From the NCBI RefSeq assembly GCF_963678635.1, contig NC_087064.1, positions 45,921,437-45,985,436 of the forward strand: a stretch of 64,000 nucleotides of DNA. The letters are read 5' to 3'. This stretch comes from Symsagittifera roscoffensis (lineage: Eukaryota). The notes below the pieces were generated by a model that worked only from the letters and a program-made list of their open reading frames with translations, was not told where the DNA came from and made no database searches. Shown here piece after piece: positions 32,604 through 64,000 of the stretch (position 1 is the stretch's first letter; each line of letters starts with the position of its first letter). A program made the translations under genes and the position numbers.

Positions 32604-32614
32604 ATTGTTGTTGC

Positions 32615-32657
<43 letters not shown>

Positions 32658-32659
32658 GC

Positions 32660-32705
<46 letters not shown>

Positions 32706-41340: not shown

Positions 41341-43180
41341 GCAGAAATTGACAGAGACCTATTCACAGGCAATGTGTTCAACGATGAAGTGCAAAAAGAT
41401 CTGCTAGCGGAAAAGAATCTCCGGAACAAGCGTTATTTGTCAGTGTCTTCAGGATTTCTGTCAATTCCTCTGGAGTGCAAGCTCTGTAAATGTTTGTGCG
41501 ATGGTTGTTGATAGAATTACTGATAATATCGTGCCACAACACCACTTGACGTTTTTCTGCTAGAGATGCCCTGCATAGTGGGTTTGAGAGGTTTTTCTGC
41601 GAGTTCGTGGTGTTCGAGTTAAAGGAAAGTCACGGAATAGCCGATATTTTGGGCAGAAATTGTTCCTTCTCCGGGTTGCTAAGATATTCCAGGCTGTGGT
41701 AGAAGGAATTAGCCGCTACAATGTAGACCATTTCAATTCTAACATTTTTTTAAAAAACCAAAAATCCAAAGGAAAAATTAAATTTACAATTCTTTGTAGG
41801 AGAGACTGTAATTGAGACTTGGCTCAACGCCGTAGAGTTTTAGAATTTTACAACTAAATAAGTTGAGACCTACATCTAAATAAATTGTCTGACAGAGTTT
41901 TTGAAAAAATATAAATTGACTCAGACTACTCTAAATTTGCAATTTCTTCGTGGTCTTGCAAAAAAAAACGTTTAGCATTATAATCATGTTAACTATCTTT
42001 TGCTTAAAATTTAGACGATGCTTTGTGGTAAATTCGTAAGTTTTAAAAGCAGAACAAACAACTACAAAAAACAATTTGGTAAGCCTTAAATTGAAAAAAA
42101 TTGAAAAATGAAAAATATCTTTTACAATACCGCATGAGTTTATTTCAGTTCAATTGAAAAACTCCCAGCCGATTGCAACTAAAACTCCTAATCTTTCTTA
42201 TTTTCAATGTTTCCCATCAAAAAGAATAAAAAATAATTACATTACTCTGAAATTTTTGCTGCAAAGCCGCGTGAATTTAACTCAATTCGATTGAAAAACT
42301 CCCAGCCAGTAGCTTTTGAAACTATTTCAGATTAACTACAAAAAACAATTTGGTAAGCATTAAATTGAAAAAAATTGAAAAATGAAAAATATCTTTTACA
42401 ATACCGCATGAGTTTATTTCAGTTCAATTGAAAAACTCCCAGCCGATTGCAACTAAAACTCCTAATCTTTCTTATTTTCAATGTTTCCCATCAAAAAGAA
42501 TAAAAAATAATTACATTACTCTGAATTTTTGCTGCAAAGCCGCGTGAATTTAACTCAATTCGATTGAAAAACTCCCAGCCAGTAGCTACTAAAACTATTT
42601 CGGATTAACTGCAAATTAATCCAGATAAAACACCAAACTGCTGTATTGTTTTTTATGGCTCTCATTATATTTTTCCATGATGTATTATGTTTCAGCGCAA
42701 TTGTTGTTGTTTTTTTTTGAAATTTGGTAATGAAATTTTGAATTTAGTTTTATAATGAAATAAATTAACGTGACTCTTTAGCACTTTTCTCTTATTTTCT
42801 TAATTTTTTTATAAAAGTGTGCTTTCTTTGAAAAACTATATATACTTCGAAATAATTAACTTCAGTAAATAGCAAGGCTAGCCGGTAGTTATGCAAGTAA
42901 ACTAAGCAATTCCGCAGAAAATTTGCGTCTACAAAAAAACTTGAAAACAGTTGTTTCTGTTAGGTTATGAGCGGATCTAAACAAAAACCTATAAAATAAG
43001 CATATTTTGTAGTAAATGTAGAATATGCGTTTCTGATAAAGTTTTTTTCGAAATTTTTATCAAAAAAAAAAAATTCCATTTTTTGGCAGTTTTTTTAAAA
43101 GTTTTAAAAATGAGTTCAAAAAACTTCAATAACTCATACTATTGGAGAAAAATTCAGTTTTTACATTTTTTTTGCGTATT
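41341..43180 (+). repeat. Copy of the Y-end and Z segment (equivalent to ~11,590-13,150). It contains an internal ~190-bp direct duplication at 42,020-42,590.
   Basis: 41,161-41,511 and 41,520-43,150 match 11,512-11,766 and 11,770-13,150. The block ttggtaagc(a/c)ttaaattgaaaaaaattgaaaaatgaaaaatatc... occurs twice. Confidence 0.75.
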
Positions 43181-44420: not shown

Positions 44421-45432
44421 TTTTCCTGAAAAAAAAAAAGAAACATCATGACCTTAATAATAGTCAGAACTATCTCAATCGAAGTAAGTTTTAGTCGCCT
44501 ATTCGCACTTTTGACGGATTTCATGTGTTTTTTGCCCTTCTTTTTAAATTGATCAGAAATTCAACAAGATGAGCTTACCTTGCAGCTCAAATCAAGTATG
44601 AGAAGGCTTCAATATGACAAATCAATGAACTCTATCTGAAGTTTATTTGTGGCTTCTGGAGTTGAGTTGAGAATACATGCGAGAACTCAACAATATGCGT
44701 AAGCGTAACCCAACAATATGCGAGAATACAATATACGTAACCCAACAATTCTTGAACCAACTTGAAACTAAATGAAGCAAAAATTTTGATGTCACTTACA
44801 CTTTGCAGAAAAAAAATTATGGGGGAGGAAAATTTTCTGATTAAAGCGACCGTGAAAACTCAAGCCAATAACCTAAAAAAGTAAGTGCGAAAAATTATTA
44901 CCTAAATAAGTGTCCCTCATCACTCAGATATGCATATTTGAGTCCAAGGTTAGAAAAAAAATGGTGCAGTAAATTTTTATTAATTATTTATTAATCTTTC
45001 ATCAATTAAAGGTATGCCTAATTTACCATGCATTAATCTTTGAATTTCAAATTAACATTTCTATAGCAGTTAATGTCCAGTTAATGAATAGATAAAGAAT
45101 GTTTTATAGATAAATCTTGAGGGAGTATACATTTCCCAGTTTATCTGCAGCAGATATGTTCGACAGTTTCACACGCGTGTCTTCGTTTCTTGAAACTGTT
45201 AGGCAGGAGACAGGTCCACTACATGAAAATTGGCCAACCTGAAAAACAACGTAAATAAAGACAAGTTAGAACAACAGCCTTAAATAACCATCTTACATAC
45301 TGTTAGATTTAACACTTGTTTTAAAAAAATCAATTTTTTAAATCGGAAATAAAAGTTTGCAAGTTTTGTTTCAAGAAGTTAAATCTAAAAGCAACTGAAA
45401 TCTTTCGTAAGCTGAATTTTAATTCATTCTTA

Positions 45433-45615
45433 CTAACTTCTCCATTTTTTTACATGCACGAAATGTATTAAGGAGCTTGCCTGTATCAGACGTCTTTCTT
45501 TTGTACCATCTTTGTCAACTTCTTCTTTTCTCCACACTCTGATCTCGCAGTCGTCCCCAGCAGTTACTAGCAGGGCATGCGCCAATGAAATACACCTAAC
45601 TGCTCCCTCGTGTGC
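45433..45615 (-). CDS. WD40-repeat protein gene, terminal coding exon (E10). The stop codon is at 45,433-45,435.
   Basis: Acceptor aattgttgcag|GCACACGAG in phase 0. The translation is AHEGAVRCISLAHALLVTAGDDCEIRVWRKEEVDKDGTKERRLIQASSLIHFVHVKKWRS*, a WD blade with the ...AGDDCEIRVW motif. Confidence 0.55.
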   Translation of the reverse strand, partial: AHEGAVRCISLAHALLVTAGDDCEIRVWRKEEVDKDGTKERRLIQASSLIHFVHVKKWRS

Positions 45616-45766
45616 CTGCAACAATTATTATCTCAAATCCGCACGTTCGAACAACCGTTAAGTTCAAAAAAACTTACACGCAAATTAGAGCACACTACAA
45701 ATACAATGACCAGAAATAGTAAACGTGACTATGAGACAATGAACAAAGATTACTCGTGACAGGTAC

Positions 45767-45910
45767 CTTGGTAGCCATTGTTTGTTCAACTTTCCACACC
45801 GAACTATTTCTCTTTTCGTACTCCTTCGGGCAGATCATGTGGACGAATCCATTCGCATCTCCAATGTAGAACAAGCCCTGTTCTCGTGCATCCACTTCAA
45901 AACAAGTCCA
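45767..45910 (-). CDS. WD40-repeat protein gene, exon E9. The donor is firm. The acceptor is ambiguous, with alternatives up to ~45,945.
   Basis: Donor ACCAAG|GTACCT in phase 0 joins in frame to E10. The translation includes DAREQGLFYIGDANGFVHMICPKEYEKRNSSVWKVEQTMATK. Confidence 0.45.
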
Positions 45911-46273
45911 CTGAGAAGAAGAGAATTCGTGACAAGTTTCTATTCTGTAACCTAGAAGAAAAATAAATATTTCAACACTGGGGCCAAATAAGATGACAGA
46001 GCGTTAAAAAACAGATTTAAGCCGGTTACACTCAAAACAATTCATTAATTTTAAAATTTTAACTTATCTGACAAAAAAAAGAACAGCCAATCGAGGATTG
46101 CAAAAGACTAATGAACGCAATTAAACATAAAAAAACACTGTTGAAAAAATCTCAACTTTTGAATTTCAAAGTAAAAAATAGATGCCCTTTAAGCTCTTTG
46201 AATTTCTAGAACAATTTATGATTGCCGCTTTTTTGATAACATTAACCCAAATTGAGAAAACTGGATCAACAGG

Positions 46274-46634
46274 CAGGGGCGGATTTAGGGGGGCGGACGC
46301 CCCCCCCCCTCAGGGATTCGACCCCCTGCCGACCCAAAGGGTCCCCCCTTTGATACTTTTTCAGAAATCCATTTTTGGCCGACCGACCGTAAAATTTTTT
46401 TAAAGGCTCTTTCGGCGCCAATATATATTAACTTTGAGGGGGAGCGCGCGCCAAAAAAACGCGATTTTTTTGTGAAAGTTTTTCCAAAAAGTGCCCAAAA
46501 TAGGGGCAAAACAGTGCTTTGGGAGAGCTCGAAAAATCAATTTGATCGACCTAAAAAAAAGGTCGTCAAAATTTTGGAAAATTTTTTGAAAATCCGCCCC
46601 CCCTCCCCTCGAGAAAATCCTAGATCCGCCCCTG
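46274..46634. mobile_element. hAT-like MITE of 361 bp with 16-bp imperfect TIRs (CAGGGGCGGATTTAGG / CCTAGATCCGCCCCTG). It is flanked by an 8-bp target-site duplication TCAACAGG at 46,266-46,273 and 46,635-46,642.
   Basis: Direct reading. The TIR begins CAGGG, matching the hAT YARNG rule. An 8-bp TSD is the hAT hallmark. The element is a GC-rich island in an AT-rich intron. Confidence 0.65.
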
Positions 46635-46899
46635 TCAACAGGTAAAGTTTTTTTCCGCTGGGAAATCTTTAGAAACAAATTCTACTTTCGAAACTAGAAA
46701 ACGCTCACGAATTTTTGCGCCAACTGCACGTTCGTTTTTGGAGAGTGCTATTTACGTCACTTTCAGCAGATGAATTTCAATTGATCTCAAAAAATGCATT
46801 ATACCTAAGTGCATCAATATTTTAAGATTTACCTGAAAAAAAATCAGTAGGACCTATATGATAGTCTTCACTACGTTCATTACTCTTAATCATTTAAAT

Positions 46900-47250
46900 T
46901 TGATCAGATTGATTGAACTATCATTGCTTTGCACAGTCGTCAACCATAGTTTACCGGCTCTTCGGTCCGGAGTCTGGAACAAAGCGTTCGATGAGCTAAC
47001 AAAACAATCGCGTTCATCCATACTACAGTGCAGGTTCCAGAAAGTCTTATTTGGCCCCTTCACTACCAGCCAATCAGTACGCCAGGGCTCATCTTTCAAA
47101 GATGGAGAGGCTGTGCTCCACAGATTCATTACGTTCTCTGGTCTGGAGACGCTTCGAGCTAATGCAGTCAATGAACCGTCCCAGCAACAGAACAATATTG
47201 GGTTCTTTTTGTCAATAAGGGACGACACTTTGCGTATATTGGCCACTGGA
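46900..47250 (-). CDS. Candidate additional exon (E8) of the WD40 gene. Boundaries are unresolved.
   Basis: Minus ORF 46,890-47,297 (135 aa, no stops) contains ...PILFCCWDGSLTALARSV...NLWSTASPSLKDEPWRTDWLVVKG. The overlapping plus-strand ORF 46,858-47,307 is probably the mirror artefact. The 3' end overlaps SINE-like tail sequence. Confidence 0.25.
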
Positions 47251-47601
47251 GATCCTAGATCAGTTGTCGACAACAAACTAGAACGCAACATTATCAAGTT
47301 TTCGTAAAAATTTCAGACACTTACTCAGCTTCATTAAAATAAAAATATTAAATTAGGCAACTTTTAAGGCTGAATTCATGATGCTTAATATGGAGTTGAT
47401 CTATAATTCTCTCAATCTCCCCCTAATTCCACCCCGAGTAGAAAGAATAAAAGAATTTTTGTAAAAAAAGAAACACTTTCGAAGAAAGAACGACACACTC
47501 AATTCGCAGGTTGATCGCTTATAGTTTAAGTATACTTCCAGTCAGTCTCATTTTATTGCTCACAAAACCTCTCGAACATTTCTTCAACATTCCAGACTCA
47601 C

Positions 47602-47940
47602 AGTAGAAATGAGAACAAACCTCAGTGATGCAATGGACCCGTAGGCCCCATTGTTTGCTTCCGTTATCTCCCAATTGTGCACTTTGCCATCACGTCCCGC
47701 ACTCATCACGAACACTCTCTTTGCGTGCACAGCCACATTCACCCCACTCACAAACCCCTTGTGGTGCTTCGGGTGGACCGAATGGTTCATTGTGAGCCGT
47801 CTCCCCGAGGAGTGTTCGACTACTTGTAATTCACCAGCCACGTCTCCCACAACTACACGTGCAAGTGAGCTGACGACGTAGAAGTCAATAGCGGAGATCG
47901 TGACGTCACAGCATTTATTCACGCTTTTAGCACTGTCACT
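47602..47940 (-). CDS. WD40-repeat protein gene, exon E7
   Basis: Acceptor tttcgtatag|AGTGAC in phase 0, continuing from E6. Donor TCTACT|GTGAGT. An alternative donor at CTGAG|GTTTGT lies ~24 nt upstream. The translation includes VFVMSAGRDGKVHNWEI (a WD motif). Confidence 0.55.
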
Positions 47941-48217
47941 CTATACGAAATTTTTTTCAACCTTAATTGGAATTTTTTAATATTCTTTTTTTAATCTTTG
48001 TTTTCAATTTAAAAGATAATCAGCATCAAATTAGAATTTGAACTTCATTTTCTGATTCCACAACACTCTTTCTGCTTTGAAGACATTTGAAAACAGATTT
48101 TCGTAATAATCATATTGAATCCAACTAAATGAATGGCAGTGAACGTTGTTCAGTCTGAAGTGCTCATAAAACCTTGTTCAGTCTTATCATTCGTTGTTAT
48201 TATTTAATGATATATAC

Positions 48218-48501
48218 CTGAACTTTCAGGTCCCATTTGATCACGTTCGAATCACTCGCGCCTGAAAACACGCTCGAATCCTTGCTCTGTTCACATACAC
48301 AATTGACCACTTCTGAGTGACCGACAAGAGACGAGGTCTGATCCCCGACCATGGGGTCAACGACAGTCGTGTGTCCATCTTCGTGTCCAATCACCAAATG
48401 CACTTCTTTTTTCGACTCTTCTTTCTTAGTCGGGATTTCTCTCTTGCTCTGAGCAGAAATTTCTTCATCCTTTTCTACTTCAGCAGCCCAATCTGCAATC
48501 T
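48218..48501 (-). CDS. WD40-repeat protein gene, exon E6
   Basis: Acceptor tttgtctgttcag|AGATTGCAG. Donor GTTCAG|GTATAT. 1 nt from E5 plus AG forms GAG, so the frame is kept. The translation includes LVGHSEVVNCV...SGASDSNVIKWDL (a WD blade). Confidence 0.65.
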
Positions 48502-48826
48502 CTGAACAGACAAACATGTTTCGGACTTCGATAACAGTGTTTTTGTTCCGATTAACCAAAAGCAGTTTTAAATTTTTAGTAACTTCAAGGGCAGTCAAGT
48601 TTAGCCGATAGGCGTGCTACTCTGGAGTGGATTAATTTTTGAATTTGTTTATGGATTTAACTAAACATGTCTCAGCTTTTCGAAATAATAACTCGAGCGG
48701 ACTTCGAGTTAGGGAAACTTCGCTTGATGTTGTTTTTGTTGGAAAATATGGCATTTATAAGATATTCTTGAAACATTTTTGGAGCTTTCTGAAAACTTTC
48801 AATAATTAAGTCTTATTTGAACTCAC

Positions 48827-49010
48827 CCAGATTCATAACAGGTGAGTCCTCATCTGCCTCAGCTTTTATTCTGGCCTCACATACAAGCGTAGATATGCTT
48901 GCACTTGCCGGCGAAGTGAATTGATTGGACGCCAATATGGACCCTGTGGAGTATCTCCAGCACTTCACAACGCCTTCGCTGTCACTCGATACAATCAAAT
49001 CAGCATCGTT
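48827..49010 (-). CDS. WD40-repeat protein gene, exon E5
   Basis: Acceptor ttttttag|AACGATGCT. Donor AATCTGG|GTGAGT. The translation is NDADLIVSSDSEGVVKCWRYSTGSILASNQF... Confidence 0.65.
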
Positions 49011-49799
49011 CTAAAAAACATTTCAGAATGACCCATCAACAAACATATGCTGAAAACATCTGTAAAATGCTTGTTATGTTGTTTTTCCAACCCGACAGAG
49101 CAGCTGTCACATTTTAAGGAAACGAAATGCGAAATGCTTCAGCCGTGCAAAGTGAAAGCACTAATCAAATTAAAACTAGCGAACAGAGACAGCTGGAAAA
49201 GTGTTTATGAATTACAAGAAACCAAAAAATATATCTTTTTTTCTGATCATTTCAAGGGAAAGCATATCACGGTAAATCTCGTTGAATTTCGCAATATTGA
49301 CACTTTTTTGATAAAAACTGACCCATATTTTGCGCACTATTTACACTTTTTTTCTTGGAGAGCTTCATGTGCATTCCTTACCACTGTCTGACCTGGAAGT
49401 CAAAGAATCAGTTCACTTCCGCTTATAAACTAGCCAAATTTTCCGCTTGCGCCACCTAATCCTCGAAATACCGCTCTTATCGATGTCAAAACCATCATTT
49501 ATAACTACCTAGATCTGTGTAATAAAATGGAGCTAATTAGATAATGAATACAAAAATTCAGTTCCTTTTTGCAATCTTTTTTTCAATGCAATGGCTCGTT
49601 TATGCAATAGTCAGGCGTTGAGAAAATAAAACATCAACTGATATTGGAAATTACCTCTTTTAAATCACAGTAATTTGCTTCTTGCTAGTCCGCCCATACC
49701 CAATAAAGCGAAGGAACTAAGACATAGGATCGATTGTTTCAGCGCTATTTTAAGCATCTCAAAACCACAGGGAATATACTTATGTCGGCAAAATAATGT

Positions 49800-50075
49800 G
49801 GGAATCTGAAATCCTTTTTCGAAACTAGAAGTCGATCACGCGCATTTCGTGACCCTTACATTTTTGCTGTTTGATACTGGAGTTTGCCTTCCTTTTAACA
49901 AAACAAATGAACTGAACTCAAAAACAAATCAAAAGACAAACCTCGAAAAATTAAATTTGAGCTAAACAAAAACAAAATTTGAACTATTTCTGAAAAAAAA
50001 AACGTAAATAAAAATCATTCACGTTCATCGACTCTTGAAAAAACTTCGCTTTGTTGAACGGAAAAATTAAATGTT
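49800..50075 (+). mobile_element. SINE-like short interspersed element, copy B. Full-length: head plus tail ...cttcactacgttcatcgactcttgaaaaa...ttgaacggaaaaatt.
   Basis: See copy A. The tail is shared with copy D (61,990-62,115) and with 46,858-46,900. Confidence 0.55.
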
Positions 50076-51835
50076 TGATTATTTATTTAAATGAGGCAAG
50101 ACGCCATATTTACAAACCGCCATACCATATCTTGGAGCCGAAATTACATCAAAATTATGTAACAAATGCATAACACCAGTGACAATCTGTTGTTATGTTA
50201 CATAAAAATGTTTATGTTCAGCTTGTTGAAATGGTAATATTATTTTCGGCTTGTTAGCTGACCACCATAATTTCGATTAGCTAAAATATAAACAACTAGG
50301 GTTGACGAGAAAAAGTTGAAACACTTCACTATTTAGACATTTTGTAAGACAAACTTTCACTAAGCTTGGCTCAATTAGCTTGTTTACGCACATTTTACAA
50401 TCCAGCTTCAGTATTAATTAACATACGGGCCACCGACAAATCAAATTTCAGAAAAAAATTTCGTATTCAAGCGTATTTTCTTTATTTACTTTCAAATCTG
50501 GAACCATAAATGATTATCAGATGAAATCGAGTGATGCATCATCATATTAAAATCATTTCAACCAAATTTGAGCAGTAGTTTCAAAGTTTATCCGATGTCA
50601 AGAAAAATCGAGTAACAATTTTTGGTTATATTTTCCACAAAAAAACGAAGTTAAGGCCAACGCCAGCCAAAACCGCTTCAAGTCAATAAAATTCCACGCC
50701 GCAGCCAGACCTTTGCAAGCTTCTTGCTCGGAAACAGTCTATTTTAGTTTTTTTTTGATAAAATGTTTCCAAAAAACGGACAACAACTGCTAACTTTATT
50801 TTTTTTTGGCCTCATCATACTGGCTCAATGAATTCAATCGTATTCTATTTATTAAGTTTCAAAACTGCATAATTCATTCGAAGTGCAGTCCATTATGTAA
50901 ATGCCCTCCAGTTAATTTTTTTTTGCAAATCACGGCGGCTAAATCATTCGCATTACAGACTTGAAATTTTATTTCAGCGACAATGCATAATGGGCTTAAT
51001 ACATATCTATTTTGTAAACAAATAGCGTGCAAAGCTTCAGAAAAATCATTTAGCTAGCAAATGATATTCTAATTCCCTAAATTATAATCCTCACTTTCCC
51101 AGGAGCAATATGTCCCTATGAAATTTCGATTGAGCGAATTGATGTTAAATTCCAATTAAAAAATAGTCAATGTGATTTTGACTTAGAGACATAAGTCTGA
51201 TAGCGATACTCTGTACTTTAAGTGCCCTTAAGCTCAACGTCATTTCATTGCTTTAAAAACTTCTCTCTAGATTTGGATCAACAGATTCAACCCAACTGAA
51301 ACCAAATTACCATGACTAATTAAACCCTTTTATCGCATTTAGCCCATGAGGGAGATTTATGCAAATGTCTGCAAACAGTCCTAGCGCTGACTAATGCTAT
51401 TTAGATATTATCATCGGTATTTTTCAACCAAATTAAAACTATTTGGTTACATTCAACTATCTGTGGAATTAAATTCAGATAAGATTCAGAAAAAAGGATT
51501 CACACGTGATTTCAATTATCAACATCATATCATGTTATGTTGGGTAGGAAGTGGTGTAAATAGCGTCTTCTAACCAATTAGTAAGACCAAAAAAGCTCGT
51601 ATAATAATAACAAGACTGCTCGTATCAGGGCGAAGCCCTGAATGTTCCGACTGCCTTTTAAGGTTTATGGAGCAGCAGTAAAAGCATTAAAAAAATAAAA
51701 TAAAATAAAATGAAAATTTTTTCTAAAATTTGAAATTTTTTGTGAAAATCATCCCCCCACACGCCATATAGAGTACAAAAAGAGAGATTTCGTTCCTTGT
51801 AACAAATCAATTATGGCAAATAAGCTTCTTTTAAC

Positions 51836-52145
51836 CAATTTGGAACGATTATAAGACGGATTAACTCTCCGCTTACGCGTTAATAGCGCGAAATATATCG
51901 CGCGTTAATTGTCCCAAATTGGCCAAAATGGCAATCTTTAAACCCCCATAACTTTACGAAAAATGATCACAGGTGAAATATCTTTTCAAATTTAAGCTCA
52001 GGACAACAATAACTTTTGAAGGATATAAAAAAATTCCGTCAAAAATGGCTAGTTAAAAAGTCGAAATTTGTCTGAAGAAAAAAAACCCACCCCGAGCACA
52101 AATATTCCGTTACTTTCGTATCGAAAGTCGGAACAATAAATGTAA
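51836..52145 (+). repeat. ~300-bp interspersed repeat, copy 1. A partial copy is at 52,866-52,960 and another copy at 53,196-53,465.
   Basis: Shared blocks: gacggattaa(c/a)tctccgctt...cccccataacttt(a/g)c(g/a)aaaaatgatca...caacaata...ccgagc(a/t)caaatattccgt. Confidence 0.6.
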
Positions 52146-54038
52146 GTTTCTGCGATTCGCAGAGGCTCTATGATAGGCTTTGCAGCCTGTGTAAGCGTAG
52201 TCCGTTTCTCTTATTTCCTCACATTCCAGACTGAGTTATTTCGTTGAGCGGAGTCCTTTTTTTTGCGATTGTGGATTATGGGTCAATTTTTGCGTCTAGA
52301 ATTTACATGTGGTAGCACTATTACAGCCGGAATTGGTCAAGCTGTGGTAGACCTGCAGCTAGAGGTCAAGTGAGAGCTCGTCCTCTTCATCTATCATTGC
52401 CATGGCAGTGAATCAATTACACGAATTGAACGCCTAGCCACTATACTAAGTCGAACTGGTAAGGCGTTCAATTTGCATAGGAATGAAAACCTGATTGTTC
52501 GAACTGATCTTTAGCGTCGATGAAAAAGTTTTTCTTAGAAAAAACTGTGGGAAACATGAAAAAATTTCAAAATGTTTGTTTTTTCAGTACCATCTCTTAA
52601 TTTATCCTTCTACACGCTATGTTAAGTACAGAGTGATACAAGTTGGTATGGTAATTGATTAATAAAAGCAATTTAGTGATTTCAATCCAACTTGAAATGA
52701 TTTGATTTGCTGGTGACACATTGGAAAGGGCAAAATATATTGCGCGTTTATTATCTCACGTTGACATATTATGATCAAAGTAGCCCCAAATTCAATCCCC
52801 AATAACCTTAGAACCAAAATTTGCTAGAAAAATTTAACACAAATCGAAACAGATCAGCTAAAAAACCTGGAATTAAAATTTGTCTGGAGAACAAAAAATC
52901 CCGAGCACAAATATTCTGTCACTTTGTTGAAAAATCGGAACGAATAGCTTGCGTCAAGACATTTCACAATAATTTCTGCGCCATATTTAATAGCCGGTTT
53001 ACGTGTGAACACGACGAAGTGCAGCGCGTGTTTATGGTCCCAAATATGCAAATCAGCATTAAATTTTTAAAACAAAAATTTCTGAAATATAAATTTTTGA
53101 AAAACACCCTTCACATTCTATAAAAAGTACAAAAGTACAAAGTGATATATTTCGCATATAGCAAAGTACTAAATAGACTAAATAGAAAGCTTCAACTCAA
53201 TTTCGAACGATTTCTAAGACGGATTAAATCTCCGCTTTATTAGCAAGAAATAGATCGCACGTTAAATGTCTCAAATGGTCAAACTTTGAACCCCCATAAC
53301 TTTGCAAAAAATGATCAGAAGTCAAATATCTTTTTCAATTTCTCAAGACAACAATACATGTTGAATGATTTTTAAAGATTCCGTAAAAAAATTGCTGGAG
53401 AAAAAACCACCCTGAGCTCAAATATTCCGTCTCTTTCTTAAGTCAGAACAATTAGGATCAATCAAGATAAAAACGTCGTAGTCAAGTTCATTAATGACGT
53501 TTAAATCTTCATATACCAGTAAAATTCACGATTCAAGGAAACAAATTTTCAGAGCGTAAAGAAGTGATATGAACTTTCAACAAACAGAATTTTTTCGATA
53601 GAAATTTGATAGGCTAATTAATCGACCACGAAGTGGTAAGGAACTATGTGCTTTGTATGTTTTCTTCTCAATTCTGACGGCTAAAAAAAGTTTGAAGGGA
53701 GTCCAGGGTTGCATCATATTCAATCCCTATAATCGTAATTCGGATACCAAAAAACGAGAGATTGAACTAGACAATTTTATAAGTCTGCAATTTTTTCATT
53801 AATCTAGTAATTATTACCTCTCATTTGGCAGCGTTTTACGTAACTCAATCGCATTTAGGTAAAAAATAAACGACAAATATTTCAGCAAAAGAAAAACAAT
53901 GTTCTGTATCTTATTTGCTTTACTCCAATGGCTGAGGTCCGCATATTCTGTACTATTTCTACAATATTAGTCAGATCAAACACTTCAACATTTAAAATAA
54001 AAATTCAACAAAACTAGTTGGGTAAGATTTGGACTAAC

Positions 54039-54320
54039 AAAATACTTGACGTATTGTATAGCCGAGTTGTGGCCTGTCAATGTGTATGCAGCACAATTAG
54101 CATCAATCACTGCTCTTTCTTCTTTCCCTTTCTTGTCGCCCTCTTTCATCACCAGGTGGTTTATCCTCTTCCAAACTCTGATTGAGTTGTCTGCCGAGCC
54201 AGTGACGACTACTTCTTCACTGGCATCCAGACACGTGACCCAGTCTTCATGAGCATTTTGGATCACTTGCACTGGTCCTTTGCCGTTTTTGATTTTCTTC
54301 ATGTCCCAAAGAGCCACTTT
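54039..54320 (-). CDS. WD40-repeat protein gene, exon E4
   Basis: Acceptor aaatgattgcag|AAAGTGGCT in phase 0. Donor TATTTT|GTTAGT. The translation is KVALWDMKK...VVVTGSADNSIRVWK...LTGHNSAIQYVKYF (WD GH and WD-type motifs). Confidence 0.6.
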
Positions 54321-55494
54321 CTGCAATCATTTAGCACATTTATTATTAAGTCAGTTAAGGTATAAAGGATATCCAAGCATTAAGGTACTTTATTAACCTA
54401 AATTGCAAAAGTATATCGAAATTTAGATGCCCGGCAGCTGATATCAAACTCAATGCCGACATACGTCTTTGCGGTTAATGAAACGTTTTTATTACGGTTT
54501 TTTTTTCATAAAAATTTAGGTGATAAAAATAGGTGATCATTTCTTAATCACTGATTTGAAAATCGATGGGTCTTTTATGCTTATTCGATGTTTGACGCAG
54601 AGGCGAGACAGCTTCGCAACACTTGCGATACAAGGCAAGTTGTCGACAGAAAATGAATGAACACAGAGGCGAAGCTGCGCTTCGCAAACACTTGCGACAA
54701 CACGACCAAAAAGCAGCTCTATCTATAAAAAGTAGAAATAAGCGTCGAATTACCAAAAACTCGGATACGTGTCGGATTCAAATCTGCGATCTACTGCAAT
54801 CAAATGATTTTGAGTCTCACGCACTATCCACTCAGCTACGCAAGCTTAACAACCAAGAAACAGTAGTCACGAATAAAGCCGCTACATATGCTAATAAATT
54901 GCCAATGCCATTTAGCAAAAATGGCACCAAATACAAATAGACACAATGCTGCAAATAATAATTTGGAATATAAAAAACTGAAGGCAACCACACTAAATTT
55001 GCATCACAACAATCACGACCACAACAAATCGCAAAGCACAAAGCCACATTATGTATAAATTACGCATTTCAAAAAATTGCTTGATACATTAAGTTAGAAA
55101 AATTCTGAAATCGAGTTTTCATTATTGTTATGTTGTTTGAAACAAATCACCTTTACGGTTCATTTGATGAATTAAAAATGCATCAACTGTGTTAACTTAT
55201 CATCATTCGAATGTCAAAGCAGATGCTATGAAAAAGCTGTCAAGGCGTCACCAAAAGTGGCACCAATATTTCTGACTTAGGCTGGAAAAAAAAAGAAAGT
55301 TCGCACTAATACACATGGGTTCGCAAGTTTAAAAAACGTTCAAAACAGCAACATAGCCAACAGACAGTCGGAAAAAAAGCCAATAACGCAAAAAAGAGAA
55401 AACAATTTTCGAACTTCCAGGAAAACAGATTGATTAAATTAACACAATGAGAAAACAGGATCAATAGCTAAAATTTTTAATTCGCTTGGAAACC

Positions 55495-55640
55495 TGAAAA
55501 TTAAATTCCATTTTCGAAAATTCTGCTGTTCGATAAAGTACTGCTGTTGGATAAACGACACTTTTGCTGTTCGATAACGGAGTTGGTCTTCCTTTTAACA
55601 AAGGAAATGAGCTGAATTAAAAAAAAATCAAAAGCCAAAC
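55495..55640 (+). mobile_element. SINE-like short interspersed element, copy C (head region), within a WD-gene intron
   Basis: See copy A. Confidence 0.5.
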
Positions 55641-55858
55641 TGCGAAAAAAAATCATCCCGAAAAAAATCTCACCGCCTATACATGAGTCTTGAAGAAGTT
55701 AATTTTGAGATAAACATTACCAGGAAAACAATTTCCAGTATCCACAGTTGAATTAATATCGAAACAAAATTGCGCAAGGGTAACTATGCCGATAACATTA
55801 GTTTAATATTTAAGGTTCAATACAGAGGCGAAGCTGCGCTTCGCAAACACAAGCGAGG

Positions 55859-57105
55859 AAAATGTAAAAAAGCTTTGAACGGGAAAATCAAAGTGAAATA
55901 AGACAGATTCAAAATACACCTTGAAAAAAAATTGTTGAGAGTAGAAGTTTTATTTTCTCACATCTGCTCTACGACCGTTTGTTATTTTTCTAACATTAGC
56001 AACTAATAAAGCAGCTACAGTTTTTATCAAATGCAAATTGCCAATGTTATGCAGCAAAAATTCGACCAAAAAAATACTTAAATGTTCTGGATTTGAATAT
56101 CAGACCTGTTGATTAGGAGTCTCACGTCCTCGCATCTGCCCTACGGTCGCTCGGAAGTAAACTAGTGGCCAAACTAATTTTGGATCTACCAGCTCTAATA
56201 ATTCAATCACATATTTTACGGACACGGAAATGCATAATTTTCAAAATAAGGGACTTTATGTTAACCCTAGAGTTTCTCTGCTTATCTATGGGATGAAAGG
56301 CAAATTTAAAAGAAAAAAATACTATTCGCTTTTCCAATTGAAGTCTATCTCAGGTTAAGCTGGGTAGTTTTTGAAAAAGTGAAAAAGGTTCCATAAATCG
56401 ATCGAAAATTCAAAAATCGAACTTTTCCTAAATCCAAAAAAAAATCGCTAAATAAGCATGGAACTAGCTTCTGATTTCTACACCCGGGTTTTCAGATAGA
56501 AGATTTCGACACCCTGATTTTTTAGATGGAACCCTTAATATCAGATTTAGCTAGAAGTTTTCGATAATAGTGACAAATTTTCTAAAAGGGTAAAAACTTA
56601 AAAACGAATTTTTCCGAAGTCCATATCAGCTTTTCTACAGAAGAGTAACAGGGTAAAACAGATAACGCAGGGAAAGTCTAAGCACCATGTCAGTTTTATT
56701 GATCTATTAACATCAGAATCAGCAAATTCGTTTTTCGAAAAAAGAAAAGCTTTCCAAAAAACGGGCATACTGTTTTTCAAAATGCAGGGCATAGCCGTTT
56801 GCACAGATAAGATCGGATTAACTGATTTTTTTTGGTTAAACACAAACACTCAAAAAAGTTTCAAAAATAAACCAATATGTCAAAAATGGGCTTGTTTGAG
56901 GCATGCCGAATTTAGGGATTAGCCTCTTGAGAGATCCCTCTATATTGTTCTTTTGATTGACACCTACATCTCAAGTTTGTGCGTTCAATATTTGCGTTCA
57001 AAAATGAAAAGAAAAAAATCAAAAAATAGGCCAAAATCTCCCTATTGAAACTTTCGAAGGCTGCAGTGAGTAAGGTAACATAAAAGAAGACTAGCGAAAT
57101 ATACA
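55859..57105 (+). repeat. 1.2-kb dispersed repeat, copy 1, in the E3-E4 intron. Copy 2 is at 62,756-64,000.
   Basis: Near-identical sequence over >1.2 kb from ...tgtaaaaaagctttgaacgggaaaatcaaag to ...ctgcagtgagtaaggtaacataaaagaagactagcgaaatat. Confidence 0.85.
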
Positions 57106-58025
57106 GGCACAAAGAAAAGCAGCCGGCTTTTCCATTGTTACCAATTTTTTGAAAATCGGTACAGTAGTTTGAGAAAAATTGAAACTTCTGCAAAAAGTGC
57201 AAAAATTTTCCAAAGTGTTGCAAAAAACAACGAAAAACAACATATCCCATTTATGTTCATTATACATGTTTTTTTTTCAAATCGAAACTAACACTAGCCA
57301 AAAAAAGCAGCAACATATGCCATTAAATTGGTTATGCTTAAATATGATTAAATTCAAATATACCAAAAAAGCCACCAAGTGAGTACTTTTATTAGCGACT
57401 TAGGTGATAAACAATTCTTCGTAATCATACACTACGCTTCGCTTATGTTAAAGCTATGAAACGTTTGAAAACTCCAAGTTTTTAGGTCTCCTCAACACAG
57501 AGACGCCAACAAACTTTTTCGCCCGTTAAATAAGGCAATCAGAGGCAGCTAAGCCAATATAGTATAATCGGAAACCTTTCAAGTCATTGAGTAAATCAAA
57601 ACAATGAAATCGGTCAAAGCAATTTTACAGGCAATGAAAAAAGAACATAGTACCAGTAAATAACAGTAATAACAACTATTAGCTAATTTTGAATTTTCCA
57701 GAAATTGTGCATATCAGCACAAATAATACAGTGATTCTGTTTCACAAAATTTTTTTTCGAAAGAAGTCAATATTCCAACTTTATCACGCTTGCTACTCGC
57801 AAGCGTAGACAACTTAAAATTAAATTTTCAACTATTTACAGAGTACCGTTGTTGTTTTCTGGTTAAAACTTAAGACTTTTCCCGGATTTTTTAACTTCAG
57901 GCGGTGGGCATCAAGCCACTTCAAGAAACCCGGCGTTTCTTTTCTCGGCTGATTTTACCTAGTGTACTATTATCAATTTCAGGCGGTTTGCCGGCTCCTC
58001 CGAGCTGCTTGAAATTTGCACTTAC

Positions 58026-58158
58026 CCTGTCTTTAGCTGCTGAGAAGAGAGTACGGTCCACAAATGCTAAATGGGTGAGGGGTCCCTCATGGGCGCTCTG
58101 CACAGTGAACAGTCTCTCGAGGTGTACAGGTGCAAAATGATCACTCGCATCGCGACTT
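58026..58158 (-). CDS. WD40-repeat protein gene, exon E3
   Basis: Acceptor tttttgtgcag|AAGTCGC with a 1-nt phase start. Donor GACAGG|GTAAGT. TC from E2 plus A forms TCA, so the frame is kept. The translation is SRDASDHFAPVHLERLFTVQSAHEGPLTHLAFVDRTLFSAAKDR. Confidence 0.6.
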
Positions 58159-58318
58159 CTGCACAAAAACTAACTATTAATCGTCCATAATCCTTCCATA
58201 GATTATCGTTATAGCGTCAAATTTAAAGGAGTTTAATGACCGATAAAGAGTCTATAAAAAATCGATGCTCGACAAACAATCCTAGTCCAGCGAACCCTAA
58301 GAAGAACTGCACGCTTAC

Positions 58319-58714
58319 GAAATTTGGCTAGACTCCACTTTGAACAAGTCCACATTTCCATACTCGGATCCCACACTCACAACCCAGAAAATTTTCTCTT
58401 TAACTGGTACTATTCCAACACCCAGACAAGTTTGCTTCTCAGAGGAGTAGAAATCATACTGGACACCACTGAAGGAGCTTTTTTTCTTCGTTTTCTCTGT
58501 AGCCACGCCTATCTTCTCAACAGTGAACTTAACATCTGAGTTGAAATGCCACGTAGAAATAGGCCGTGAAGCGGTTTTAGGATAACAGTATGCAATGAAG
58601 AGACGTCTTTCGCTTACGACTAAAAGCGAGTTATCAATCCACTCTATAAATTGAAGAATGGCTTTGAAATCCTGTGGGAATCGGGTAGACTTGAGTATCT
58701 TGTAAGTTGAGCCA
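58319..58714 (-). CDS. WD40-repeat protein gene, exon E2 (396 nt)
   Basis: Acceptor tttgtgtttttag|TGGCTCAAC. Donor ATTTC|GTAAGC. The frame is open for 131 codons: GSTYKILKSTRFPQDFKAILQFIEWIDNSLLVVSERRLFIAYCYPKTASRPISTWHFNSDVKFTVEKIG...GVGIVPVKEKIFWVVSVGSEYGNVDLFKVESSQIS. The ORF track shows only the part after an internal GTG. Confidence 0.55.
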
Positions 58715-58950
58715 CTAAAAACACAAATGTAAGTTTAAGTCAAGTATTTTGGATGTCAACCGTAAGTCTAGTCAACTATGCAACCTTTATTATAGTTAAA
58801 CCTTTTACAGGCTATTTATGAAATTGCGAAGCGTTTAATTTATAACAGCTGATTGCAAAATCCTGTTTGCTGAGACTTAAAAAATGTCAGATCAAAACAC
58901 AGAAAATGAACATTTGAAAAGCAGGGAAAATTTCTCTTGCAAAGTTTGTA

Positions 58951-59201
58951 CCATGCAACTGAAATGTTCCCGTCAGCTAGAAGCACAGCAAATAGCGTCT
59001 GGTTTTTACAAAATGCAACACTCTTCACGGAGACATCCTGAGTGTCCTCTCGTCTACTACTCTTCGAAACAATCGCATTAGACGGATTGTCTTCAGTCAG
59101 AGTTTGTTGTCTCACGTCTAGAGCTGTGATCTCTTTGCCCAGGTCACTTCTCCATACCCTTAATTGACCGTCACTGCCAGTTCCCACCAACATTTGGCCG
59201 C
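58951..59201 (-). CDS. WD40-repeat protein gene, exon E1, the most 5' exon I could find. It starts with an acceptor, so at least one further upstream exon exists.
   Basis: Acceptor ctatttcag|GCGGCCAA. Candidate donor GCATG|GTACAA, weak but phase-compatible with E2. The translation is GGQMLVGTGSDGQLRVWRSDLGKEITALDV... (a WD motif). Confidence 0.4.
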
Positions 59202-61844
59202 CTGAAATAGATTAAAAAATTAACAATCTGGGCAAAAACTACGAGGCAACAAATTGTAGAAAAATCATGAATTTAACTATGCATCGTGATGATAAAACAA
59301 AAATTCAGCAGCGGCACCAGGCTTGACATAAATATGCGGCGCATAACCCCGCATAATTAGCCTTCAATTCGAAATCGAAGAATACCGCAGAAATTTTGCA
59401 TAATTGAAGGATTTCGAGCAAACTTTTCGAATTTTTCCGAAAATTTTATAGAGATGGCATTGAATTTTTTGACGCTTCAAAAATTCGACGCTTAAAAAGC
59501 TCAAGTACCCAAAAAAAATCAAAATTAAATTAAAGGAAAATTTTTGGGTTTAATTCTGTTGGGAGGGTGGTCAAAATACTTATTTGGCAAAAATCTGAAT
59601 TTTTTGGCTAAAATTTTCATACTTTTTTCCCGTGGAATTTTATATTTGTAGAAATGCCCACATAATTAATAAAAACTACCCGCAGTCCGAACTGCATAAT
59701 TTAACTACTTATGCCCGCTGATTTTTGCCAAGCCTGTTGGCAGCATTATTCTTGATTGTTTACTTCATATCGCGTGTTTTTCAGCCGTATGGATAACGGA
59801 GCTGTAATTGTTTCGAATTCTTGTAATGATACAATAATATGGGCAGTATCTTATAAATACCAGTTTCTTTTGAATAAGCAGAGGATCAAATTTCTATCAT
59901 ATCAACATCTTCCTAGAATTAAATCGAAAATTATGTCTGATCCGAGCATAGAAAAGAATTCAAACTGATTTTGCAAGAATTAATTGGAAAGACTAAGATC
60001 TTGCTCAAAAAGATTATCATGTCCGATTTAAGCAGATCAGGCAAGACAGAGGAATCTGTTCGACTAGATAACATCGATTAAAATCACGCTTAGTCCTGAT
60101 TGACACCTGAATAAAATCTAGATTGCTAAACTTAGCAAATTCGAATTAAGAAATAAGCATCAGATTTTTCCGTTGCATCAGATCCTGCAGCAATTCTTAG
60201 CATTCACTTAATTCAACGCAGATTTTAATTAGTGGGAAGGGATGGAGGAGGATGTTGGACACTCTCAACGCCCACAGGGACTCTTGCAACACTCATTTTG
60301 GCCAAACCCTGTTTTGGCCGAATTTTCAGCAGCGCAGGCAAAATTTTGAAAAACAGGTTTAAAAAAGCCGTTTCACCCCCTAAATTGGCCTCTGCTTTAT
60401 AGAGTGTCCAGAGAGCTCCAAAATTATGTTTAGTCGACTCAAAAAATAGTAGATGAAATAATCAATCTCTGAAATTAAATTTTGATGTAATGGCGAGAAA
60501 AGGTAAGACTTGACGAATCAAGTTTTAATAACAAAACTAACAGAAATTTTCATTGGCAAATTCGGATCTAATTCAAATTCAAAAAAGCAAAAAGAAGCAA
60601 GATCTTTGCAAGAAGCACAGAAAATTCCAAATACAACACAGTAGAAAGTACCTGAGCAGAAACCATTTCAAAAAATACAAAGTTTTGAAGCCCCCTTCTT
60701 GTCAAAACACACGCGCAAACGAACACTTTCTTTGCTGATGAAACGACGCAATATAACACTATTTAGCCGATAAATATAGGCCAAAATCATTTGAGCAGAA
60801 TAAAACATGTGAGCGAAAAAAAAGAATATACGAAGTCAACGTCAGTCAGTAAATTACAAACCGCAGAAAAAATCAAAACACTAAAAGCAAATAAAATAAA
60901 AATAACGTAGAGCAAAACAAATTCTGCGATGTCGCAACTATGCTGACAAAACATAAGCAGACAAATCATAAGCCGCCATTTTTTTTTAAACGAATTAATT
61001 CCAGTTTAAAAAAAAGCAGTCAGGTTCGAACCCAGAGTTTCTGCCGTCGCAGATTATTCCTTGCCTCCAAACCAATTGTGCCGGAGAAGGAAAAAAACTG
61101 AATTCATGAACTGAACATGAAATTACCATTTCCAATTTTTCCCTTTCTGTGAAATAAGTTATTTAGAGGAAAAAAGTCTCGTACCCAGTTGCAGCACACT
61201 TGCAAAAGCAACAACCAAGTAAAACAAAAAAGGCCGTTTTTCTATGAGAATTTTTGCTCAACTTCGAGTCATGATTGAACCTTTTTATGTCGATCCCACC
61301 CAACTTTTAATCTCAAAAATAGTCAACAGACTTTTAAAAAAGTGTCAATGAACGCAAAACGAGAATGAAAAAAGGCCAATGTACTATCAAAAAATAACTC
61401 TAAAAGAGCTTAAAAAACACAAAAATTCGCAATAACAGAAGAGCCATAGATACCGAACAAATGATTGAACTTTTTCCAAATAAGGAATTTCGGAGAAGAT
61501 ATAGTATATTTAATCTCCGAAACTTTTTTCGTCAGAATTTATCAAGAAACATTTACAAAAACTAGGCCAAAAAATAACTTTTTTATTTCGCTGGGAATTA
61601 TTACAAATGGATTTTGTTTTTGAAATTAGGCCAGTCATAATTTTGGCGCGAATTGCACTTTTGCTACTGGAGAGCGTAATTTGTCTTTTTTAACAACTGA
61701 GTTAGAATTGTTTGGACAAAAAATTAAGAAATGTATGGCTTTTAACATTTTTTAATTTTAAGAACTAACTAAGATTGACTCTTTTTTTTGATAAAAAAGT
61801 CATTAAGAACAATGGATCAAAGTAATTTTATTATTCGGCTGAGA

Positions 61845-62115
61845 AATCTGAATACTTCAACCCAATTTCGGAAATAGAATTCGATCACGTTTTTTGCACG
61901 TTCTATTCGATAGTGGAGTTTGTTTTTCTGTTAACAAAGGAAATAAAGTGAGCTGAAAAAGAAATCAAGTCAAACCTTGAAAAATCAAGTTAAGCGTGAG
62001 CACTTTTCAAGAATTTTCCTGAAAAAATCTTCAAGACCTATTTCAGAGTCTTCACTACGTTCATCGACTCTCGAAAAATTTTTATCGAGAACCTGAACGG
62101 AAAAATTCGACTCCG
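61845..62115 (+). mobile_element. SINE-like short interspersed element, copy D (full length)
   Basis: See copies A and B. Confidence 0.55.
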
Positions 62116-62755
62116 ATGACGAGAACACTTTTAACATAAATCCACAAGTTGGATCAATTTAGGATGCAAGACAAAATACAGCCAGAAGAAATTCGGAAAA
62201 TATTCGATGGATGCAAAAGGATAATGAAAAAAAAGAAGATGTACTATCGAAAAAAAAATTAAAACTGGAGCTTTGAAAAGAACACAAAATTGCCACACAC
62301 ATAATAAAACCATAGAAACCGAAAAAAATTGAACATCTCTGAGAATAATTGAGAATAATTTTCCTTTTTTAGCAATTAAAATTTAATTGAACATTAAACA
62401 TAAAAATTAACCTAGAAAAATTGAACTTAACCCTTAACAACTTCTACCATACCAAAAACTCTTTCGTATAAAAAAACATAATCACTTCACTTCGTTCACT
62501 TACACTAGAACAGAAACTTTAACAAGTTTTAGATTAATTCAAAAAAGAAGAGGCGTAATTACGGGCACAATTACTTAAAATATTATATTCATTCACCATG
62601 AGAAACATAGCCAACATACAGCTGAAAAATATTCGATAAAAACAAGCAAACAATTTTTTTTAAATAACTCAACTTTCGAATTTCAAAGTAGAAAAAACAT
62701 GACCTTAAAGCTCTTTAAATTTCAAGAACATTTTATATTTGACACTTTTCTGATA

Positions 62756-64000
62756 AAATGTAAAAAAGCTTTGAACGGGAAAATCAAAGTGAAATAAGAC
62801 AGATTCAAAATACACCTTGAAAAAAAATTGTTGAGAGTAGAAGTTTTATTTTCTCACATCTGCTCTACGACCGTTTGTTATTTTTCTAACATTAGCAACT
62901 AATAAAGCAGCTACAGTTTTTATCAAATGCAAATTGCCAATGTTATGCAGCAAAAATTCGACCAAAAAAATACTTAAATGTTCTGGATTTGAATATCAGA
63001 CCTGTTGATTAGGAGTCTCACGTCCTCGCATCTGCCCTACGGTCGCTCGGAAGTAAACTAGTGGCCAAACTAATGTTGGATCTACCAGCTCTAATAATTC
63101 AATCACATATCTTACGGACACGGAAATGCATAATTTTCAAAATAAGGGACTTTATGTTAACCCTAGAGTTTCTCTGCTTATCTATGGGATGAAAGGCAAA
63201 TTTAAAAGAAAAAAATACTATTCGCTTTTCCAATTGAAGTCTATCTCAGGTTAAGCTGGGTAGTTTTTGAAAAAAGTGAAAAAGGTTCCATAAATCGATC
63301 GAAAATTCAAAAATCGGACTTTTCCTAAATCCAAAAAAAAATCGCTAAATAAGCATGGAACTAGCTTCTTATTTCTACACCCTGGTTTTCAGATAGAAGA
63401 TTTCGGCACCCTGATTTTTTAGATGGAACCCTTAATATCAGATTTAGCTAGAAGTTTTCGATAATAGTGACAAATTTTCTAAAAGGGTAAAAACTTAAAA
63501 ACGAATTTTTCCGAAGTCCATATCAGCTTTTCTACAGAAGAGTAACAGGGTAAAACAGATAACGCAGGGAAAGTCTAAGCACCATGTCAGTTTTATTGAT
63601 CTATTAACATCAGAATCAGCAAATTCGTTTTTCGAAAAAAGAAAAGCTTTCCAAAAAACGGGCATACTGTTTTTCAAATTGCAGGGCATAGCCGTTTGCA
63701 CAGATAAGATCGGATTAACTGATTTTTTTTTGGTTAAACACAACTACTCAAAAAAGTTTCAAAAATAAACCAACATGTCAAAAATGGGCTTGTTTGAGGC
63801 ATACCGAATTTAGGGATTAGCCTCTTGAGAGATCCCTCTACATTGTTCTTTTGATTGACACCTACATCTCAAGTTTGTGCGTTCAATATTTGCGTTCAAA
63901 AATGAAAAGAAAAAAATCAAAAAATAGGCCAAAATCTCCCTATTGAAACTTTCGAAGGCTGCAGTGAGTAAGGTAACATAAAAGAAGACTAGCGAAATAT
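62756..64000 (+). repeat. 1.2-kb dispersed repeat, copy 2. It runs off the window end.
   Basis: Matches 55,859-57,105 at an offset of 6,897. Confidence 0.85.

Follow-up and report, generated by a model that had tools for sequence, protein, structure and literature searches.

The region analyzed here is the 3′ part of a larger protein-coding host gene, LOC134841399, of the acoel Symsagittifera roscoffensis, and it lies within a 64,000-nucleotide stretch of DNA that was examined as a whole (the window). Eleven exons, rebuilt from the sequence, run along the minus strand from 59,201 to 45,104 and join in one open frame. Read from the ATG at 59193, this frame is identical at 872 of 872 residues to the RefSeq protein XP_063713433.1, annotated as “uncharacterized protein LOC134841399” (Symsagittifera roscoffensis). 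An identity of this extent lies far beyond chance, and the exon chain is therefore real. The gene itself is already known, as an uncharacterized protein in RefSeq. On balance, we favor a TEP1-like STAND protein whose WD40 region is encoded here, a family membership suggested chiefly by the C-terminal end of the protein, and the window probably holds only the back half of that larger TEP1-like gene.

The original prediction for this DNA had proposed a multi-exon WD40 host gene on the minus strand, and both the residue-for-residue RefSeq match and the retention of intron positions in three other genomes bear this out. The splice phases that it gave (TG+T, TC+A, 0, 0, G+AG, 0 and 0) are every one correct on the rebuilt chain, and its seven junctions stand, save that the E1 donor, placed one base off, is at 58952/58951. 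Junctions E7-E8 and E8-E9, which it had not listed, lie at 47621/47277 and 46955/45951, respectively. All intron acceptors are AG, and the donors comprise nine GT and one GC, the latter belonging to intron 10. The 3′ terminus had been misplaced because both this GC-AG intron and the exon after it, the eleventh, went unrecognized. E10 was read onward to a TAG at 45433, a frame that is broken by a 7-base indel in the sister lineage; in the RefSeq product, by contrast, E10 is spliced from 45481 to E11 (45238-45104), and the gene extends 329 bases below 45433.

Table 1. Coding exons of LOC134841399, the duplicated segments and a mobile-element insertion, in window coordinates.
Feature	Positions	Strand	Remarks
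Exon E1	58952..59201	-	RefSeq CDS start is ATG 59193-59191; phase 1 acceptor at 59201 takes upstream exon E0
Exon E2	58319..58714	-	Non-canonical blades; fastest-evolving part; homologues P0020, P0021 and P0023
Exon E3	58026..58158	-	
Exon E4	54039..54320	-	Canonical WD repeats and HEDWVT motif; 95% identical in L001, conserved in L005
Exon E5	48827..49010	-	
Exon E6	48218..48501	-	Bears the Lys/Glu-rich insert EVEKDEEISAQSKREIPTKKEESKKE
Exon E7	47621..47940	-	Its open frame leads to the RefSeq protein via the 90% cluster
Exon E8	46955..47277	-	18 bases inserted in frame in the sister lineage
Exon E9	45767..45951	-	
Exon E10	45481..45615	-	3′ end at GC donor (CAG/GCAAGC)
Exon E11	45104..45238	-	Last coding exon; stop TAA 45106-45104; supplies the TEP1_C-type last blade
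Copy A of duplication	55857..62761	-	Spans E1-E3 with 3.5 kb of the intron upstream of them and some of intron 3
Copy B tail (upstream copy)	62761..64000	-	Equals 55857-57100 of copy A; junction at ~62757-62761
MITE-like insertion, intron 8	46257..46651	.	Terminal inverted repeats CAGGGGCGGATYTAGG

The joined peptide matches the Pfam WD40 profile (PF00400), as had been anticipated, at 92 bits against a cut-off of 27 and in four separate stretches, and the Lys/Glu-rich linker of the original prediction is located in E6. Counted by eye, the 872 residues contain ~15-16 blade-like units, which is enough WD40 blades for at least two beta-propellers. AlphaFold2 models are of low confidence, with a mean pLDDT of 33.7 for the sequence by itself and 45.7 when a generic WD40 alignment was supplied, confidence being confined to the canonical blades. 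Sequence searches with the protein and a three-lineage profile (using a 615-residue chain, the non-canonical parts and the profile) returned generic WD40 matches or nothing. Similarly, searches of the PDB with the protein and with the profile recovered generic WD40 proteins only, and no solved structure of a TEP1 WD region was found there. Word-index searches failed to recover even the identical RefSeq protein, since a 112-residue fragment stands as the representative of its 90% cluster.

Within the window, tblastn located no extra WD exons either upstream of E1 or downstream of E11. The 5′ exons, which the original prediction had not found, are indeed absent from the window, and upstream WD exons were located outside it. 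The remainder of the window consists of degenerate retroelement-like open frames, as judged by eye, which is consistent with the claim that it contains only this one host gene. Repeat insertions in the introns had likewise been foreseen, and a MITE-like element is present in intron 8. No Rfam matches were obtained in the window.

Closer examination of the DNA past base 64,000 reveals at least six further exons at a distance of 7-23 kb, five of them WD-like and one helical. The gene is thereby larger than its RefSeq model, and the upstream exons continue into exon 1 with matching phase. Over the pieces that align, B1, B2, C, D and E0 share 46-70% identity with their L005 counterparts; the last three of them were recovered from the L002 lineage too. 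Helical exon A is found 10 kb farther upstream, at about +23 kb from the window, and the reconstructed WD region comes to ~1,150 residues. Since exon A is helical and not N-terminal, the gene clearly continues past the explored upstream DNA. The remaining upstream DNA carries an LTR-retroelement gag. One intron of the L002 lineage harbors a family-B DNA polymerase element.

Orthologous exons with shared splice positions and phases occur in three other genomes (L001/L009, L002/L008 and L005), and these bear directly on where the gene begins. The RefSeq model appears 5′-truncated, probably through an in-gene tandem duplication or an assembly artefact. We regard as quite improbable the alternative that the model is complete, that is, a stand-alone 872-residue WD40 protein translated from ATG 59193, with the upstream WD exons forming a separate gene. 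The RefSeq product does begin at this ATG, which lies 8 bases past the E1 acceptor, and the exon 1 start may be transcript-backed. Spliced-leader trans-splicing at the exon 1 acceptor could perhaps supply the true 5′ end; acoels use this mechanism, and it is widespread in S. roscoffensis, in which ~10,400 genes are trans-spliced (PMC9911081). However, the resulting protein would start in the middle of a WD blade, from a methionine that is not conserved: the same position is Asn in L002 and Leu in L005, in both of which the acceptor, donor and phase of E1 are identical to those in the window. The E0-E1 junction is phase 1 across all lineages, three lineages place this in-phase join at an identical position, and L008 has D and E0 fused, followed by E1. 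With the junction conserved and the methionine not, exon 1 was rejected as the ancestral first exon. Finally, no gene is on record with exactly the P0131 product, which can mean a longer isoform.

The tandem duplication itself is recent, spans 6.9 kb within the gene and takes in exons 1-3; its copies are 98.4% identical, and it is absent from L001. Together, E1, E2 and E3 amount to 779 bases, and E3 read into E1 meets a stop after 13 codons (frame 0). Splicing of both copies into one mRNA would shift the frame, and a working mRNA would therefore have to skip one copy. Alternatively, translation could restart at the ATG that comes first in exon 1, where the RefSeq protein starts, and the frame-breaking duplication may explain why the RefSeq model begins at that ATG. 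A bolder reading, which we consider unlikely, is that the TEP1-like gene has been remodelled, either into mutually exclusive cassettes enforced by the frameshift or into a split gene with a stand-alone, 872-residue, WD40-only protein. In the split case, if true, the WD40 protein would be made apart from the NTPase/effector half, representing a natural uncoupling of a STAND sensor from its effector.

The duplication could also be taken to mark a decaying gene or pseudogene, in which the internal duplication broke the frame and exons 1-3 are now drifting. The frameshift on two-copy splicing agrees with such decay, as do the 13 non-synonymous and 2 synonymous changes that separate exons 1-2 of the window from L001, and the fact that five of the six exon differences between copies A and B alter an amino acid. 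In contrast, exons 4-6 have diverged far less (2 non-synonymous and 2 synonymous changes), the full set of 11 exons is intact, exons 1-3 in each of their two copies, splice sites are conserved, and the exon 8 indel of the sister lineage stays in frame. Derived changes are in excess in copy A, yet non-coding DNA shows this as well (48 vs 20), so the excess gives no indication of relaxed selection. A selection signal drawn from the asymmetry between the copies was rejected on the same ground, non-coding DNA being equally asymmetric. Decay of this gene is very improbable.

The TEP1-like assignment draws principally on the last blades of the protein. The Pfam model of the TEP1 C-terminal propeller (PF25048) matches in a single stretch exactly at the protein C-terminus, residues 785-868 aligning to model positions 1-71 of 73 (51 bits, E 1.4e-13). 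Without exon 11, the match shrinks to model positions 1-31 at 15.8 bits. The summed score of PF25048 is promiscuous, generic WD40 proteins attaining 145-155 bits, such that only end-to-end coverage counts. By this measure, neither the generic WD40 controls (4 of 10 of which list the model) nor the other blades of this protein ever extend past model position 50. The model of the second TEP1 propeller (PF25047) scores 63 bits, under its cut-off of 89 and below the scores of generic WD40 proteins, with its best stretch pairing residues 231-309 with model positions 84-164 of 255. No TEP1-specific signal was found in the first-propeller region. A collinear BLASTP match, at ~21-33% identity, to what we take to be the human TEP1 sequence serves as a lead only.

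It is possible, if doubtful, that the gene instead encodes an acoel-specific or fast-evolving multi-propeller WD40 scaffold that is not a TEP1 orthologue, whether an NWD1/NWD2-like STAND protein or an unrelated WD40 protein, in which event the TEP1_C match would reflect general WD40 similarity. The subthreshold PF25047 score, the silent first-propeller region and the purely generic WD40 matches of the profile searches all accord with a scaffold of this kind. So does an exhaustive phmmer search with E2, which gave just three true relatives, P0020, P0021 and P0023 (50%, 98% and 37% identity, respectively), each an unnamed open-frame fragment on a metagenome or assembly contig; the other two of its five matches, P0022 and P0024, were discarded as spurious repeat proteins. 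General WD40 similarity does not, however, readily account for an end-to-end PF25048 match at the exact C-terminus, unlike anything in the control proteins or the other blades. Moreover, a helical exon followed by ~1,150 residues of WD blades fits the layout of TEP1/NWD STAND proteins. We accordingly retain the TEP1-like assignment as the preferred one.

Vertebrate TEP1 (telomerase-associated protein 1, a vault component) likewise ends in a long C-terminal WD40 run, its WD region spanning ~1,200 residues in the human protein against ~1,150 in the acoel reconstruction, and the last two acoel blades fit the Pfam TEP1 C-terminal model end to end. The published TEP1 architecture comprises TROVE, vWA, TIR-like DUF4062, NACHT, a helical domain and WD40 repeats (bioRxiv 10.64898/2026.09.21.753143, 10.64898/2026.05.01.722283), and the acoel gene similarly has a helical segment ahead of its WD region. 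Counting against the assignment, ~33 kb of contig from the same species, explored upstream of the window, yielded no coding sequence for the TROVE, vWA, TIR-like DUF4062 or NACHT parts, and the second-propeller model stays under its cut-off. The acoel gene also differs from TEP1 in its tandem duplication of three exons.

NWD1 and NWD2, STAND proteins composed of TIR-like, NACHT, helical and WD40 parts, also place many WD40 repeats after a helical domain. The N-terminal, RNA-binding TROVE and vWA module separates TEP1 from both of them. No NWD-specific signal was found in the acoel gene, however, and the sole family-specific Pfam signal is that of TEP1. In the STAND NTPase APAF-1, ligand sensing falls to tandem WD40 propellers; the WD region of APAF-1 matches the profile of the acoel gene at E 1e-22. 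This match is no better than that of WDR5 or UTP proteins and thus represents generic WD40 similarity, and the NB-ARC and CARD of APAF-1 were not seen in the acoel gene. Bacterial and fungal multi-WD40 proteins (Nostoc alr3466 type, PkwA and HET-E-like NACHT-WD40 proteins) are the top database matches for the canonical blades. These matches cover canonical blades only, spanning 20-40% of the query with 22-31% identity, and the proteins are without the non-canonical blades and the C-terminal end of the acoel protein.

As a TEP1-like gene, LOC134841399 would encode in full an effector and NTPase module, next a helical domain resembling that of APAF-1 and, after it, an extended WD40 region. Most of this WD40 ‘sensor’ would be encoded in the window, its putative role being to bind partners or ligands and to control the N-terminal module. 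As a discovery the locus carries little weight, given that it is an ordinary host gene and that WD40 genes are commonplace; its value lies in annotation. The RefSeq model is seemingly 5′-truncated, and the protein acquires a tentative name, the WD40 region of a TEP1-like STAND protein. Where the original prediction had left the identity of the gene unknown, it is now narrowed to LOC134841399, likely the WD40 portion of a TEP1-like gene. TEP1 has been described in recent preprints as a TIR-like NADase within the vault. Should the acoel gene prove to be a TEP1 orthologue in the Xenacoelomorpha, it would provide a data point on the spread of the TEP1 system in early-branching bilaterians.

On its minus strand the window carries a genuine WD40 host gene of an ordinary kind, for which an annotation already exists. 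Open frames between 45.3 and 59.6 kb on that strand were linked at canonical splice sites, yielding ten exons whose joined frame stays open for 845 codons. Rejoining these exons bore out every phase of the original prediction (TG+T, TC+A, 0, 0, G+AG, 0 and 0) and all of its junctions except the exon 1 donor, which actually lies at 58952/58951. The Lys/Glu-rich stretch that it described is present in exon 6, and the WD40 content that it claimed is recovered by Pfam, whose cut-off is 27 bits, with scores of 80 bits for this first version and 92 for the complete protein.

The RefSeq entry XP_063713433.1 ("uncharacterized protein LOC134841399", 872 residues) shares a 90% cluster with the open frame of exon 7 in the window, and the window translation equals it at 872 of 872 residues, which places the host among the acoels. 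This identity requires that exon 10 end at an earlier donor and that an eleventh exon follow. The predicted exon chain, right elsewhere, was therefore wrong at its 3′ end: read-through of exon 10 to a TAG at 45433 is not used by RefSeq, and a 7-base indel disrupts that frame in a sister lineage, in which exon 11 is conserved. Intron 10 (window 45239-45480) is GC-AG, and its donor is kept in the sister lineage.

Positions of the 3′ exon boundary, the upstream exons and the repeated sequences
Feature	Position	Detail
Exon 10 donor	45481	CAG/GCAAGC, GC donor; needed for match to RefSeq
Exon 11	45238-45104	minus strand; needed for match to RefSeq
Exon E0	~71.0-71.2 kb, window-equivalent	same-species contig
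Exons D to B1	~75.5-77.1 kb, window-equivalent	same-species contig
Exon A	~87.4-87.6 kb, window-equivalent	same-species contig
Direct repeat, 8,011 bases	6024-12920, 14035-20931, 33670-42600	three copies
RT-like fragment	210-1592, 22583-24004, 28671-30092	three copies

Word-indexed protein searches with the gene's translation returned generic WD40 proteins only. Such a search also missed the RefSeq protein, despite 100% identity, because its 90% cluster is represented by a fragmentary open frame of 112 residues, predicted in prokaryote style on a eukaryotic contig. An exhaustive search with exon 2 found three true relatives, each of them a one-exon open frame on a large ENA contig. These frames, together with that of exon 1 in the window, led to four loci: a same-species contig (ERZ25878734 ctg24344l) with 99.7% identity to the window, the sister lineage (L001 and L009) with 93-97% identity, and two distant lineages (L002/L008/L011 and L005/L006).

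In the sister lineage, each of the eleven exons persists with its splice sites, and exons 1-6 diverge by 1.4% in L001, compared with roughly 3-7% for the surrounding introns. Substitutions relative to L001 are uneven: exons 1-2 have 13 non-synonymous and 2 synonymous changes, exons 4-6 have 2 of each. Exon 8 holds the sole coding-exon indel, 18 bases in frame; compared with the window it is a tandem insertion, ARNVSR (L009:11242-11586). Exon 1 of L002 keeps the acceptor, donor and phases of the window at 43% protein identity, and its exon 2 is 50% identical. L005 is compact, with introns of ~75 bases, and is collinear with S. roscoffensis from E0 to E4, sharing the phase 1 junction between E0 and E1. 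The first ~15 bases of intron 4 (window 54020-54039; L005 ~3385-3400) read GTTAGTCCAAATCTT and GTTAGTCACAATCTT, respectively, and are conserved beyond expectation from the rest of the intron.

The database gene model probably lacks 5′ sequence. Exon 1 opens partway through a WD blade, and in place of its Met L002 has Asn and L005 has Leu. An additional exon, E0 (SYRGHSDSVRSVVFTRPDGSRLISSSLDGQLRLWSV...), was located on the same-species contig; the single base left by its donor, read with the two bases that open exon 1, makes up a Gly codon. Four more WD-like exons (D, C, B2 and B1) lie farther upstream, and their aligned pieces share 46-70% identity with L005; exon C is present in the L002 lineage too, where D and E0 form one fused exon. 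A helical exon, A, lies ~10 kb beyond this group and matches L005 at E 6e-6, and the remaining upstream sequence covered is retroelement DNA. In the L002 lineage, a 508-residue open frame (L011:17343-18869) carries the family-B DNA polymerase motif LLYSDTDSLLY, which suggests a Polinton/Maverick-like element in the intron upstream of exon C of the orthologous gene.

Exons 1-3 also lie in an apparent duplication inside the gene. Window positions 62,755-64,000 match intron 3 (55.8-57.2 kb), and the same-species contig reveals a 6.9-kb tandem unit, 98.4% identical between copies, that runs from 3.5 kb of upstream intron through exons 1-3 into part of intron 3. The duplication spans window 55857-64000, with its junction at 62,757-62,761, and L001 is single-copy. 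This is either a recent event or an assembly or haplotype artefact; the published assembly paper cautions about under-collapsed haplotypes (PMC9911081), yet the junction is common to the window and the same-species ENA contig, two separate assemblies. Derived changes are more numerous in the window copy than in the upstream copy, but non-coding DNA shows the same asymmetry (48 versus 20), so nothing about selection follows. Exons 1-3 are intact in both copies and sum to 779 bases; splicing upstream-copy exon 3 to window-copy exon 1 thus shifts the frame and meets a stop after 13 codons. From that point on, the first in-frame ATG is 59193, exactly the RefSeq start, from which we infer that RefSeq holds a truncated prediction of the protein. 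Alternatively, trans-splicing to the acceptor of exon 1 could account for this start; some 10,400 S. roscoffensis genes carry a trans-spliced leader (PMC9911081).

The window's character matches the published genome, with 36.7% GC and 61% repeats, LTR retrotransposons in the majority (PMC9911081). Copies 1 and 2 of the 8,011-base repeat are 100% identical and copy 3, at 97%, contains internal 1,683-base tandem repeats at 37595, 39278 and 40961. The unit, A-rich on the plus strand with RT-like frames that are all broken, looks like a degenerate LTR-type retroelement; a perfect match over 7 kb stands out and may reflect duplication during assembly. The three-copy fragment carries an RT-like frame (YCQKDGLAMGASL), a weak PHD-like CxxWFHxxC motif and a GIY-YIG-like motif (VVYETKC...YVGQTCR), which by eye suggests Penelope-like elements; Pfam gave a sub-threshold PHD match and nothing else. 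Long ACN microsatellites (4792-5238 and 32420-32878) lie within repeated units and translate as threonine runs on one strand and valine runs on the other. A MITE-like element of ~395 bases with terminal inverted repeats CAGGGGCGGATYTAGG occupies intron 8 (46257-46651), with a degenerate third match to its repeat at 44045.

Profile searches of the protein database and PDB returned generic WD40 proteins only, and two AlphaFold2 runs were poor (pLDDT 33.7 and 45.7). As judged by profile comparison, the one family-specific signal, seen after exon 11 was added, is PF25048, the C-terminal beta-propeller of telomerase-associated protein 1 (TEP1). Residues 785-868, at the exact C-terminus, match model positions 1-71 of 73 in a single stretch of 51 bits; with the originally predicted 3′ end, coverage is positions 1-31 only, at 15.8 bits. 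PF25048 was listed in 4 of 10 generic WD40 control proteins, two with large summed scores, but their best stretches end at or before position 50, and this protein's other blades end at 33-38. The TEP1 second-propeller model (PF25047) scored 63 bits, below its cut-off of 89. As a lead only, two collinear matches emerged from BLASTP against an unverified 569-residue sequence taken to be the C-terminus of human TEP1: residues 249-622 (including the HEDWVT motif) with positions 17-313 of that sequence, and residues 783-868 with 494-566 at 33% identity. TEP1 is ordered as TROVE, vWA, TIR-like DUF4062, NACHT, an APAF-1-like helical domain and WD40 repeats, and NWD1 and NWD2 share this architecture minus the TROVE and vWA module (bioRxiv 10.64898/2026.09.21.753143; 10.64898/2026.05.01.722283). 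A helical exon followed by ~1,150 residues of WD blades, as in the acoel gene, fits this layout. That the gene is TEP1-like is plausible and, though unproven, slightly favored.

The window encodes most of a long WD40 region, amounting to at least two propellers, with a further one upstream. Regions of this kind serve as binding platforms. In a TEP1-like gene, the window part would be the C-terminal sensor or repeat portion of a STAND NTPase. By analogy with APAF-1, the WD40 region may restrain the NTPase as long as no ligand is bound, an idea that for TEP1 the preprint authors themselves describe as speculation.
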